The notes under the pieces were generated by a model. It searched no databases and was not told the origin of the DNA. It saw nothing but the letters and a program-made list of their open reading frames with translations. A DNA stretch of 64,000 nt, taken from positions 883,336-947,335 of the forward strand of contig CAVVMO010000001.1 in assembly GCA_963749345.1 (NCBI GenBank), written 5' to 3'. Within the stretch, counting starts at the first letter, position 1, and the number at the start of each line of letters is the position of its first letter. A program made the position numbers and the translations under genes. The stretch comes from an uncultured Bacteroidales bacterium (GTDB taxonomy: Bacteria; Bacteroidota; Bacteroidia; Bacteroidales; JAADJA01). Shown here piece by piece: positions 40,263 to 42,850 of this stretch.

Positions 40263-41522
40263 ATGAACAGGATAAATTATAAGCATATCGCCATGCTTAG
40301 CACCCATGGCTATTTTGATCCGGCTCCAACCCTTGGAATTACCGATACCGGTGGACAGGTTGTTTATGTGCTAGAACTTGCGAAAGCACTCGCGCGAAAA
40401 GGAATAAAAGTTGATATTTACACCCGATGGTTCGACAAAACAAAGGCACAAGTTGATCCGGTTCCAGGTCATCCCGATGTTAGGGTAATCAGAATACCTT
40501 GTGGGAATTGGGAGTTTGTTCCAAAAGAGTTTATTTACAACCTGCTACCCGAATTAGCCACCAATATGATCCGGTTCATCAGTAAAAATAATCTTTCTTA
40601 TGATCTGTTACATGGGCATTATGTCGATGCCGGTATTGTTATGCTTGAAGTAGCAAATTATTTTGATAAACCATCCTATTTTACAGCTCATTCGCTGGGT
40701 GCCTGGAAACGTGACCAGATGGGAGGCGATACTAAAGAAATGGAAAAAGTGTTCAATTTCCAACATCGAATATCTGAAGAAATTAGAATATTTAAAGCGG
40801 TAAATGGACAGACAATGACTTCGTCGGTTCAGCTTGAAAAACTGGACAGCCTATATAATTTTAAAGCAGACAATATTGAAATCATCCCTCCGGGCGTTGA
40901 TATATATAGATTTCGGATGATGAGGGCATCAGAAAAGAAGATAAAAACCAACTTGCCGGAAAAATATATTTTGAACCTGAGCCGGATCGACTCAAATAAA
41001 GGTCATGACCTATTGCTCAGGGCCTATGGAAGAATTGCTCATCAGTTTGCTGATGTACATCTGGTTATTGGAGGAGGATCACCAAGTCCAAAGCCCCGTG
41101 AAATAGAAATTTTCGACATGATGCGAAAAATCATCGAAGAGAAGAACATAAAAGAAAAAGTACATATGGTAGGTTATATCGGAGACGATATGATGCTTCC
41201 GTATTACCAAAATGCAATGCTTTTTGTTTTACCATCGATTTTTGAACCTTTCGGAATGACTACCCAGGAAGCGATGGCTTGCGGTTGTCCGGTGATTGCT
41301 TCAAAATTCGGTGGTATCAGGAATGCAATTATTCAGGGTAAAAATGGATTGCTGGTCGATCCTGGGAATGAGGAAGAATTCGCAAATGCAATCAAAAATT
41401 TGTTAAATGATGAAGTTCTGCGAAAAAGGATTGGCAAGGCGGGGAGTGTCCTAATTAGGAATGAGTATAGCTGGGAAGCCATTGCTGACAGGTTTTTGGA
41501 ATTTTATCTGAAATATAAATAA
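40263..41522 (+). CDS. GT4 glycosyltransferase, sucrose-phosphate synthase/sucrose synthase-like
   Basis: STHGYF...LG.TDTGGQVVYVLELA.AL, HGHYVDAG, HSLG, EPFGMTTQEAMACG. Confidence 0.85.
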   Translation: MNRINYKHIAMLSTHGYFDPAPTLGITDTGGQVVYVLELAKALARKGIKVDIYTRWFDKTKAQVDPVPGHPDVRVIRIPCGNWEFVPKEFIYNLLPELATNMIRFISKNNLSYDLLHGHYVDAGIVMLEVANYFDKPSYFTAHSLGAWKRDQMGGDTKEMEKVFNFQHRISEEIRIFKAVNGQTMTSSVQLEKLDSLYNFKADNIEIIPPGVDIYRFRMMRASEKKIKTNLPEKYILNLSRIDSNKGHDLLLRAYGRIAHQFADVHLVIGGGSPSPKPREIEIFDMMRKIIEEKNIKEKVHMVGYIGDDMMLPYYQNAMLFVLPSIFEPFGMTTQEAMACGCPVIASKFGGIRNAIIQGKNGLLVDPGNEEEFANAIKNLLNDEVLRKRIGKAGSVLIRNEYSWEAIADRFLEFYLKYK

Positions 41523-41525
41523 ATC

Positions 41526-41550
41526 TTGAGGTCACAATCTGTGACCTCAA
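41526..41550. repeat. Perfect 25-bp palindrome upstream of the ORF6N gene
   Basis: ttgaggtcaca-atc-tgtgacctcaa; a related copy at 41761-41785 lies inside the gene. Confidence 0.85.
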
Positions 41551-41559
41551 AAAGTTAGA

Positions 41560-42111
41560 TTGATGAATAAACTTATACCAAAAGAAGAATTTATCGCCGG
41601 GAAAATTTATGTGATCCGAAATCAGAAAGTAATGATTGATGCTGATCTGGCAGCTTTATACTGTGTAGAAACTAAAACTTTAAAAAGAGCTGTCAGAAGA
41701 AATATTGAACGATTCCCTGATGATTTTATGTTTGAACTCTCATTGGAAGAATTCAATAACTTGAGGTACCAATTTGGCACCTCAAGTTGGGGAGGAAGCA
41801 GGCATCTTCCAATGGTTTTTACTGAACAGGGAGTTGCCATGTTATCCGGAATATTAAGAAGTCCGGTTGCAGCTCAGGTGAATATTCAAATTATGCGTGT
41901 TTTTGTTAAAATACGGAAGTTAATTTCCAGTTATCATGAACTACTTGAAAAAATTGAAAAAATAGAGGCCAATGTCACAGAACAAAACCAGCATATCAGT
42001 AGAATCTATGAGATTATTAAGGAGTTAATCGAACCGTCATATAAAAACAGAAATCCATTAGGATATAGATTAAAAGAAGAACGTGGAAAATATATTATTC
42101 AAAATAGCTGA
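41560..42111 (+). CDS. ORF6N domain DNA-binding protein
   Basis: IYVIRNQKVMIDADLAALY.VETKTLKRAVRRNIERFPDDFMFELS...LPMVFTEQGVAMLSGIL.S..A.QVNIQIMRVF. Confidence 0.9.
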   Translation: MMNKLIPKEEFIAGKIYVIRNQKVMIDADLAALYCVETKTLKRAVRRNIERFPDDFMFELSLEEFNNLRYQFGTSSWGGSRHLPMVFTEQGVAMLSGILRSPVAAQVNIQIMRVFVKIRKLISSYHELLEKIEKIEANVTEQNQHISRIYEIIKELIEPSYKNRNPLGYRLKEERGKYIIQNS

Positions 42112-42850
42112 AATAAAAAATACCGGCAAAAAAGCTGCATTCTGCATTATTGTTGAAACAAAGGGTAGTTTGCCGCGAAAAGCCGGATCAAAAATGTTGG
42201 TTTTCGAAGATGGGGCCATAGAAGGCACTATTGGTGGCGGCAGTCTTGAATTTAAGGTAATCGATGACGCACGAAAAGTTATTGCCCAAAATCACCCTGA
42301 AAAGTTTATTTACCATCTTGAGGAAGATTTATCGATGCACTGCGGAGGAACGGCCGAGGTTTACATTGAACCTATTGTTCCAAACCTGAACCTTTATATT
42401 TTTGGAGCTGGTCATATTGGTAAAGCACTTGCGAAATATGCTTTTGACTTTGGATTCCATATTTGCCTGGTCGATCATCGGAACGAAATGATGGATGCGA
42501 TGGATATTCCCGGAGTCCAGCTGATTCATGATGACTATATAAAAACTGCTCAGGATATAGGCTTCAATGAAAATGACTACATAGTTATAGTTACGCCCAA
42601 GCATGCATATGACGAAGAAGTGCTTGCAATCTGTGCAAAAAAAACTTTTGCTTATCTTGGTATGATTGGCAGTGCGAGGAAAGTTGCACTAGCGCGAAAA
42701 AGATTAATGGAACAAAAAATATTGACCGAGCGCGAATTAGAAAAAGTTGACATGCCCATCGGAATTAAATTCAACGCACAGACTCCTGAGGAGATTGCCA
42801 TCAGTATACTTGCAAAACTGATCGACGTAAAGAATTCTATTAATAAATGA
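42083..42850 (+). CDS. xdhC: XdhC/CoxI-family Moco insertion chaperone
   Basis: GTG start; GSLPRKAGSKM...GTIGGG, CGG, IFGAGHIG, YLGMIGS, PIG....AQTPEEIAISILA. Confidence 0.85.
   Translation: MENILFKIAEIKNTGKKAAFCIIVETKGSLPRKAGSKMLVFEDGAIEGTIGGGSLEFKVIDDARKVIAQNHPEKFIYHLEEDLSMHCGGTAEVYIEPIVPNLNLYIFGAGHIGKALAKYAFDFGFHICLVDHRNEMMDAMDIPGVQLIHDDYIKTAQDIGFNENDYIVIVTPKHAYDEEVLAICAKKTFAYLGMIGSARKVALARKRLMEQKILTERELEKVDMPIGIKFNAQTPEEIAISILAKLIDVKNSINK

Follow-up and report, generated by a model that had tools for sequence, protein, structure and literature searches.

A palindrome within an ORF6N gene as a candidate binding site of the protein it encodes, with a labile upstream copy, at a purine-breakdown operon of an uncultured Bacteroidales bacterium

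A short ORF6N gene stands between a GT4 glycosyltransferase gene and xdhC in the 64,000-nucleotide stretch of Bacteroidales DNA analysed here (the window), and two look-alike palindromes accompany it, one just ahead of the gene and one inside its coding sequence. The question is what these palindromes are for. The first-pass annotation of the window offered two answers: that they are the protein's own DNA target, serving autoregulation, or that they are the recombination or mobility end of a minimal selfish cassette. The family of the gene product is clear, since profile PF10543 scores 118.7 bits (E = 1.3 × 10−34) against a cut-off of 27.8, with residues 14-96 aligned to profile positions 2-85 of 86, which makes the protein a member of the ORF6N family. 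There is no second ORF6N gene within the 64-kb window. The features on which the argument depends are these.

40263..41522, plus strand: GT4 glycosyltransferase gene, the upstream neighbour; stop TAA at 41520-41522; conserved synteny
41526..41550, no strand: upstream palindrome, TTGAGGTCACAA-T-CTGTGACCTCAA; half-sites TTGT and CTGT, Gln-42 class
41563..42111, plus strand: ORF6N gene, 182 aa; PF10543 match, AlphaFold2 model, dN/dS 0.04-0.15
41671..41700, plus strand: predicted recognition helix TKTLKRAVRR, codons 37-46, from the AlphaFold2 helix and covariation
41677-41679 and 41686-41688, plus strand: Thr39 and Arg42, whose identities covary with positions 4 and 5 of the half-site
41758..41788, no strand: internal 31-bp palindrome, AACTTGAGGTACCAA-T-TTGGCACCTCAAGTT; half-sites TTGGT and TTGGC, Arg-42 class
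41863..42030, plus strand: two long helices, codons 101-156, predicted at 101-140 and 143-156
42083..42850, plus strand: xdhC, the downstream neighbour; GTG start within the last 29 nt of ORF6N

The gene is wedged between the GT4 stop and xdhC just as first described, with the TAA at 41520-41522 on one side and, on the other, a 29-nt overlap that opens with the GTG at 42083. The gap between GT4 and ORF6N is 40 nt and nearly all of it is taken up by the upstream palindrome, which presumably leaves ORF6N without a promoter of its own at the junction. A promoter scan with the sigma-70 consensus, from which Bacteroidota promoters differ, lists no plus-strand match in the last 150 nt of GT4. The 40-nt gap, together with the tight junctions in sister lineages, suggests that ORF6N may be co-transcribed with GT4, and the conserved 29-nt overlap suggests that it may be translationally coupled to xdhC. 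The xdhC start falls inside the conserved C-terminal tail of ORF6N (…RGKYIIQNS, then stop), and the overlap is kept in both of the deep clades described below; the start codon is GTG in the window and ATG at the same position in L019 and L012. ORF6N, a small gene for a predicted DNA-binding protein, thus sits within an operon for the breakdown of purines.

Both palindromes are genuine and lie far above chance expectation. The upstream one, TTGAGGTCACA-ATC-TGTGACCTCAA, is a perfect 11 + 3 + 11 arrangement at 41526-41550 and begins 3 nt past the GT4 stop; dinucleotide shuffles of the window return 0.00 matches. Its extent and perfection agree with the first-pass annotation, as does its hypothetical translation, LRSQSVTS. 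The distance to the start codon has to be corrected. It was given as 9 nt before the ATG, but the codon at that distance is a TTG at 41560 that is not conserved in orthologues, and the conserved ATG at 41563 is 12 nt from the palindrome. The internal one was described as 10 of 11 pairs, TTGAGGTACCA-ATT-TGGCACCTCAA at 41761-41785, in frame as LRYQFGTS. All of that is right, and the real extent is larger: arms of 15 nt surround a single central T at 41773, with 14 of 15 pairs, to give a 31-bp palindrome in the codons of residues 66-76, NLRYQFGTSSW. The palindrome is odd-centred with a CAA-N-TTG core, and it lies at the codon position where the self-encoded palindromes of this family are found. 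No other palindrome of the family type reaches 10 of 12 pairs anywhere in the 64-kb window.

The second of the original answers, that the two palindromes are ends or recombination sites of a minimal mobile ORF6N cassette, can draw on several facts. The sites repeat each other in direct as well as in inverted orientation, ORF6N genes are found in many unrelated contexts, and no homologue of 60% identity or less is located in the GT4/xdhC context. Yet one palindrome lies within the gene, so the pair does not bracket ORF6N, and the junction is an old one. Relatives with 70-97% identity, in uncultured Bacteroidales bins and metagenome contigs, occupy the identical position in a shared gene order of ffh, a SLOG gene, prmC, a PRK-like kinase, GT4, ORF6N, xdhC, xdhA and xdhB. 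The GT4-ORF6N-xdhC arrangement is kept in 11 lineages over which identity falls from 98% to 64% for GT4 and from 98% to 62% for XdhC, and a tree rooted with GT4 from two other phyla has two deep clades. The orthologous ORF6N genes are under strong purifying selection, with dN/dS of 0.04-0.15 where dS is saturated (>1).

A search for relatives with an empty site, as proposed with the cassette idea, took the form of a single genome-contig scan with GT4 as the query. It gave gene-bearing loci, one remnant and two distant GT4 homologues without xdhC, and no clean empty site. The remnant belongs to L012, a Bacteroidales bin whose GT4 is 88% identical, and here the gene has been lost by an internal deletion (L012:4746-4880) that leaves a decayed upstream palindrome, about 10 of the 5′ codons, and the last 20 or so codons holding the xdhC start (ATG). 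Keeping both ends of the gene in this way is deletion, not excision. The assembled contigs of four metagenomes, in which rare variants could go unseen, contain no excision or inversion joint from the window organism, the joints seen there being other organisms' ORF6N genes that align to the palindromes, and no target-site duplication was seen in the junctions that were read. Because the junction is shared, because the L012 loss is an internal deletion, and because no joint comes from the window organism, the cassette reading is unsupported, whether one thinks of a cassette or of a MITE, and we hold it to be highly improbable. On these comparisons, ORF6N is an old, vertically inherited resident and not a recent insertion.

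The internal palindrome is kept as DNA, with pairing far above what the peptide requires. The metagenomic sample consists of 87 distinct ORF6N genes with 48-100% identity. The 31 nt at the homologous codon position form 10-15 of 15 pairs (mean 13.2), as against a mean of 3.9 at all other positions in the same 87 genes, where 12 or more pairs are reached at 0.013% of positions. When the peptides are kept and their synonymous codons redrawn, 6.5 ± 1.9 pairs result. An independent sample of viral contigs behaves the same way, with at least 9 of 12 pairs at 35 of 35 distinct sites versus 0.8% of control searches. Changes on both sides are found in 10 of the 15 pairs, in 125 cells compared with 49 in shuffles, and the covariation score is 0.294 versus 0.120 ± 0.009 for shuffles and no more than 0.071 for slid controls. 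The compensation reaches across amino acids: Ser (TCA) goes with Val (GTG) and Ser (TCG) with Ala (GCG), Cys or Tyr (TGC, TAC) goes with Gly (GGC, GGT), a Leu to Trp change (TTG to TGG) is accompanied by TCA to TCC, and Arg to Met (AGG to ATG) by ACC to ACA. Degenerate codons for amino acids that are invariant in the 11 orthologues occupy 78 columns outside the palindrome and 4 inside; at saturated dS (>1), 74 of the 78 vary and 0 of the 4. It had been asked at the outset whether synonymous variation freely breaks the internal palindrome, and here the palindrome is untouched.

The family also contains variations in how the site is accommodated. In 6 viral genes the core TCACAA-N-TTGTGA is read in another frame, giving ELITNCDKL instead of LRSQIVTS. 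Viral loci with the core shifted by one frame include L150, L155, L158, L169 and L172, where it is encountered about 200 nt into ORF6N, is translated E-L/V-I-T-N-C-D-K/N-L, and takes the form TCACAA-N-TTGTGA or TCGCAA-N-TTGCGA, still in obedience to the rule for Gln or Glu at residue 42 that is described below. Some genes have a second family-type palindrome 27-51 nt away within the ORF6N coding sequence (L082, L089 and L096 near position 1762, and L146), sometimes of a different class. A search of phage GenBank with a 35-mer matched four unannotated records and none further.

Pairing alone would also preserve a hairpin or a cruciform, and the palindromes might accordingly be nucleic-acid structures, such as an RNA hairpin ahead of the start codon and within the mRNA, a terminator for GT4, or a DNA cruciform for recombination. 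Both fold stably when single-stranded, at about −11 kcal/mol and with z of about −5 to −6, and non-coding upstream copies elsewhere keep 12-15 perfect pairs even with quite different outer arms. The upstream hairpin is terminator-like on the minus strand, but no gene converges there that would need termination, while on the plus strand, where an intrinsic terminator for GT4 would act, the hairpin runs into AAAAAG and has no T-run. Among the mismatches, G-T pairs of the wobble type number about 19 of about 143 (about 13%), which is near the chance level of one in six and is no enrichment; because of this, the element is better regarded as DNA than as RNA. The curated covariance models of Rfam give no match at E up to 1, so neither measure points to a structured RNA. 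Furthermore, the centre CAA-N-TTG is invariant and base 4 is tied to residue 42, as given next, which fits the read-out of a duplex by a protein and not a plain hairpin. We consider a structural role for the palindromes to be very unlikely.

The AlphaFold2 model of the ORF6N protein has a mean pLDDT of 77 and consists of a small alpha/beta domain with helices at 26-33, 37-46 and 61-71, a low-confidence loop at 72-83, and then the long C-terminal helices at 101-156. The N-terminal domain in this model looks like a winged helix-turn-helix. A PDB search by sequence has no match to that domain and found no solved structure of an ORF6N domain, and a fold search gives a weak resemblance to the winged-helix-like Ski/Dachshund domain (E = 0.2-0.5). 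Codons 101-156, as modelled, are probably a coiled-coil module for dimerisation or oligomerisation; the PDB sequence search finds a weak match to the coiled coil of SMC1. The internal palindrome in the model codes for the end of helix 61-71 plus the start of the loop 72-83.

A relation between the protein and the palindrome emerges when residues are compared with bases. Measured by mutual information over the 87 genes, residues 42 and 39 account for about 1.0-1.25 of the 1.3-1.5 bits available at positions 4 and 5 of the half-site, and every residue other than these two for 0.5 bits or less. For residue 42 and the fourth base of 5′-TTGN the rule is that Arg or Lys goes with G, Gln with T and Glu with C, and it is followed by 82 of 87 metagenomic genes and 35 of 36 viral genes, divided as follows.

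Arg or Lys at residue 42, fourth base G: 43/44 metagenomic, 6/6 viral
Gln at residue 42, fourth base T: 32/36 metagenomic, 24/24 viral, shifted frame included
Glu at residue 42, fourth base C: 7/7 metagenomic, 5/6 viral

The sole viral exception with Glu42 is a gene that has two palindromes, and most of the viral genes (24 of 36) are of the Gln-42 class. The pairings agree with textbook contacts, which are Arg to guanine, Gln to adenine and Glu to cytosine. A contact between residues within the protein can be excluded as the cause because residue 42 predicts which synonymous codon is used for Ser69: Gln accompanies TCA in 32 genes, Arg accompanies AGC or AGT in 21, and Glu accompanies TCG in 5, with 4 exceptions. 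The rule holds as well in the 6 viral genes with the other reading frame. When the trait columns are left out of the tree, at least 24 changes of class are needed on it, and the phylogenetically independent pairs are concordant in 5-6 of 6 and never opposite. The window protein has Thr39 and Arg42, and its internal half-sites TTGGC/TTGGT are those that the rule calls for. L009 is an exception: its protein has Arg42, the internal site is decayed and resembles TTGT, and a perfect TTGG site stands ahead of the gene. Because conservation at the DNA level, compensation and the residue-42 rule all come together on it, the internal palindrome is most likely the ORF6N protein's own binding site. The early suggestion that the protein targets its own locus is thus well supported for the internal site, by virtue of conservation, compensation and a residue-42 rule that operates in two frames; autoregulation from the upstream site is the part that lacks support.

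The upstream half-sites are TTGT/CTGT, which for an Arg42 protein break the residue-42 rule. The upstream and internal sites differ at positions 4 and 5 of both half-sites, the same positions that residues 42 and 39 track, and since they differ exactly where specificity is set, the two palindromes of the window are not equivalent. Both this mismatch between a TTGT class and an Arg-42 protein and the history of the copy, which is intact, half-decayed or absent among the 11 lineages, speak against autoregulation via the upstream copy. It is near-perfect in the trio to which the window belongs, with a different single change in each member. In L004 the right arm alone remains, and in L005, L013 and L020 the copy is absent and GT4 abuts or overlaps ORF6N. 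In L003 (L003:3960-4000) the GT4 frame enters the upstream palindrome and stops at a TGA in its left arm (cTTGAgg), and the right arm has decayed. The upstream site in L009 and L019 is of the TTGG class, and the one in L009 is a perfect 31 bp. The protein of L019 is Gln-42, its internal site is TTGT and its upstream site TTGG, which makes L019 a second case of a protein that is matched by the internal site and not by the upstream one. The gap in L006 is 74 nt (L006:3927-4000) and accommodates two upstream palindromes, one of each class, AAGGTACCAtttTGGCACCTT and then a perfect TTGAGGTCACAAaTTGTGACCTCAA; L019 retains the first of these types together with a decayed trace of the second.

An alternative would be for both palindromes to be operators of the window protein, with looping over the 235 bp between them repressing the protein's own gene. 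The upstream enrichment of family-type palindromes is in its favour: in the 300 nt upstream of ORF6N genes they occur at 0.66/kb versus 0-0.07/kb in the far flanks, or about ten-fold, and they are present at 13 of 71 unrelated loci where shuffles lead one to expect 0.2 per 254 kb. With Gln-type genes the upstream site is almost always of the TTGT type (18 of 19), and the long C-terminal helices could support higher-order assembly. The mismatch at positions 4 and 5, tracking residues 42 and 39, nevertheless counts against looping, as does the gene's being under strong purifying selection even in L005, L013 and L020, which have no upstream copy, and in L003 and L004, where it is half-decayed. 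Variation in the population, too, strikes the upstream palindrome and spares the internal one; variants from four sediment metagenomes fall inside the former at 41532 and 41539 (T>C and C>T), and none is listed from these metagenomes between 41716 and 41852, the interval that holds the latter. The 40-nt gap is filled by the palindrome and presumably has no promoter for an upstream operator to control. We regard looping between two operators as unlikely.

If the window protein is not the partner of the upstream palindrome, a Gln-42-type ORF6N paralogue elsewhere in the genome or on a phage might be, in what would be a cross-regulatory network. The sampled loci can be examined for this. Of 30 upstream sites, 20 agree in class with the protein next to them, a weak correspondence (permutation p = 0.04) that is concentrated in the Gln-type genes already mentioned, at 18 of 19, versus 2 of 10 for the Arg/Lys type. 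Upstream sites are not significantly nearer to their own internal site than to those of other genes (18.8 vs 17.6 of 24, p = 0.18). TTGT-type sites stand ahead of most of the sampled Arg/Lys-type genes (7 of 10 sites), intact upstream palindromes persist over saturated divergence, and Gln-42 is the class most often found in viruses, all of which a paralogue would account for. But random draws from a pool dominated by TTGT produce an equal pattern, and the 64-kb window itself offers no second ORF6N gene to play the part. We therefore place this reading among the distinctly unlikely ones.

All this makes the upstream copy an accessory that recurs but can be dispensed with. That it has stayed intact across saturated dS in the window, L006, L009 and L019 argues against pure neutrality. 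We had also entertained the idea that the upstream site is a simple fossil of a Gln-42 ancestor and dropped it: concatenating six proteins still leaves clade B as a polytomy, and over its residues 41-80 the window protein is closer to clade A than to its clade B sisters. Arg42 may be ancestral in the window lineage.

The account that we favour, and that we think probable, is that the internal 31-bp palindrome is the dyad double-stranded DNA site of the self-encoded ORF6N dimer, read out by residues 42 and 39, and that the upstream palindrome is a labile, non-mobile copy. An ORF6N dimer would bind the dyad-symmetric internal palindrome within the gene that encodes it, although both the binding and the dimer stoichiometry are things that we infer. 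Residue 42, in the helix at 37-46, would read base pairs 4 and 5 of 5′-TTGNN with the aid of residue 39, and in the window Arg42 would be reading TTGG. Codon choice, and at times the amino acids, would yield to the symmetry of the DNA in codons 66-76, where the end of a helix and a flexible loop may be able to afford it. Any regulatory effect is a matter of conjecture, and the form we would propose is that binding inside ORF6N dampens transcription of ORF6N and of the coupled xdhCAB, either as a roadblock or as a self-limiting loop. The upstream palindrome would be a second, evolutionarily labile copy of the element at the GT4/ORF6N junction, and because it belongs to the commonest class, TCACAA-N-TTGTGA of the Gln-42 type, it is unmatched to the Arg-42 protein of the window. 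Its partner could be the window protein at lower affinity, a Gln-42 paralogue, or nothing, the copy no longer being needed. A more elaborate proposal, which we find doubtful, is that the ORF6N proteins are orthogonal dimeric binders, each having an in-gene address set by one residue, and that upstream copies of the other class wire a network of host paralogues and phages that gates the GT4/xdh junction.

There are known systems with which the favoured account can be compared. In Bacillus subtilis, a parS site lies inside spo0J/parB, so that ParB has a site within its own gene. The likeness is a palindromic site in the coding sequence of the gene for its binder, which in the case of ORF6N would follow if the protein binds as proposed. 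That parS differs in being one member of a set of centromere sites spread over the chromosome, all with the same fixed sequence, whereas the ORF6N site has one fixed codon position throughout the family, is variable, co-varies with a residue of the predicted recognition helix, and has no partition role indicated. Auxiliary operators are also found within coding sequences, as with lacO2 in lacZ and galOI in galE. These resemble the present locus in having one upstream and one coding palindrome a few hundred bp apart, which is what suggests looping, but they are in the regulated target gene and not the repressor's own, and the operators share one specificity; the ORF6N pair differs at the specificity positions, and its upstream site is dispensable in sister lineages. 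The O protein of phage lambda binds the iterons of ori-lambda inside gene O, which is again binding to repeats within the protein's own coding sequence and in a part of the protein that tolerates constraint. That case is a replication origin with four iterons, and the ORF6N site is a single odd-centred palindrome in a chromosomal operon without replication genes. REP sequences and their RAYT proteins are similar in tying short palindromes to one protein family with additional copies near the gene; REP sequences, however, exist as hundreds of dispersed intergenic copies outside the RAYT coding sequence, versus two ORF6N palindromes in 64 kb, the main one being coding.

Iyer and colleagues reportedly defined, in 2002, the KilA-N/Bro-N/APSES group of predicted DNA-binding domains, to which we take ORF6N to belong. 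Like others in the group, it is an alpha/beta domain of small size at the N-terminus, is often met in phages and mobile elements, and is annotated as DNA-binding or antirepressor-like. The titles and abstracts of the ORF6N papers listed contain no description of a conserved ORF6N palindrome or of a residue-to-base code. If the binding is as we propose, the conserved protein motif LRSQxVTS of ORF6N would be largely a translated DNA operator, and the reading of a very common and functionally obscure family, found in prophages, in defence islands and wedged in operons, would change with it. The family would also have a specificity code of one residue that is readable from sequence alone. The locus is a natural evolutionary series in which the internal site follows the specificity of the protein through at least 2 class changes and the upstream copy does not, and this sets what would be the essential cognate site apart from an accessory copy that can be spared. 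The locus further indicates that ORF6N genes can be stable, vertically inherited residents of metabolic operons.

Some smaller observations concern the family and its expression. The longer relatives P0029 and P0030 (282-312 aa) have the ORF6N domain fused to a Phage_pRha domain (PF09669). A tandem pair of ORF6N genes occurs at L091:447-1538, 51% and 44% identical to the window protein, with one palindrome each. Finally, contigs from sediment metatranscriptomes, sparse in number and about 95-97% identical, span the 3′ part of ORF6N (window positions 41962-42112), and because they cover that part, ORF6N or a close relative's gene is transcribed in nature.
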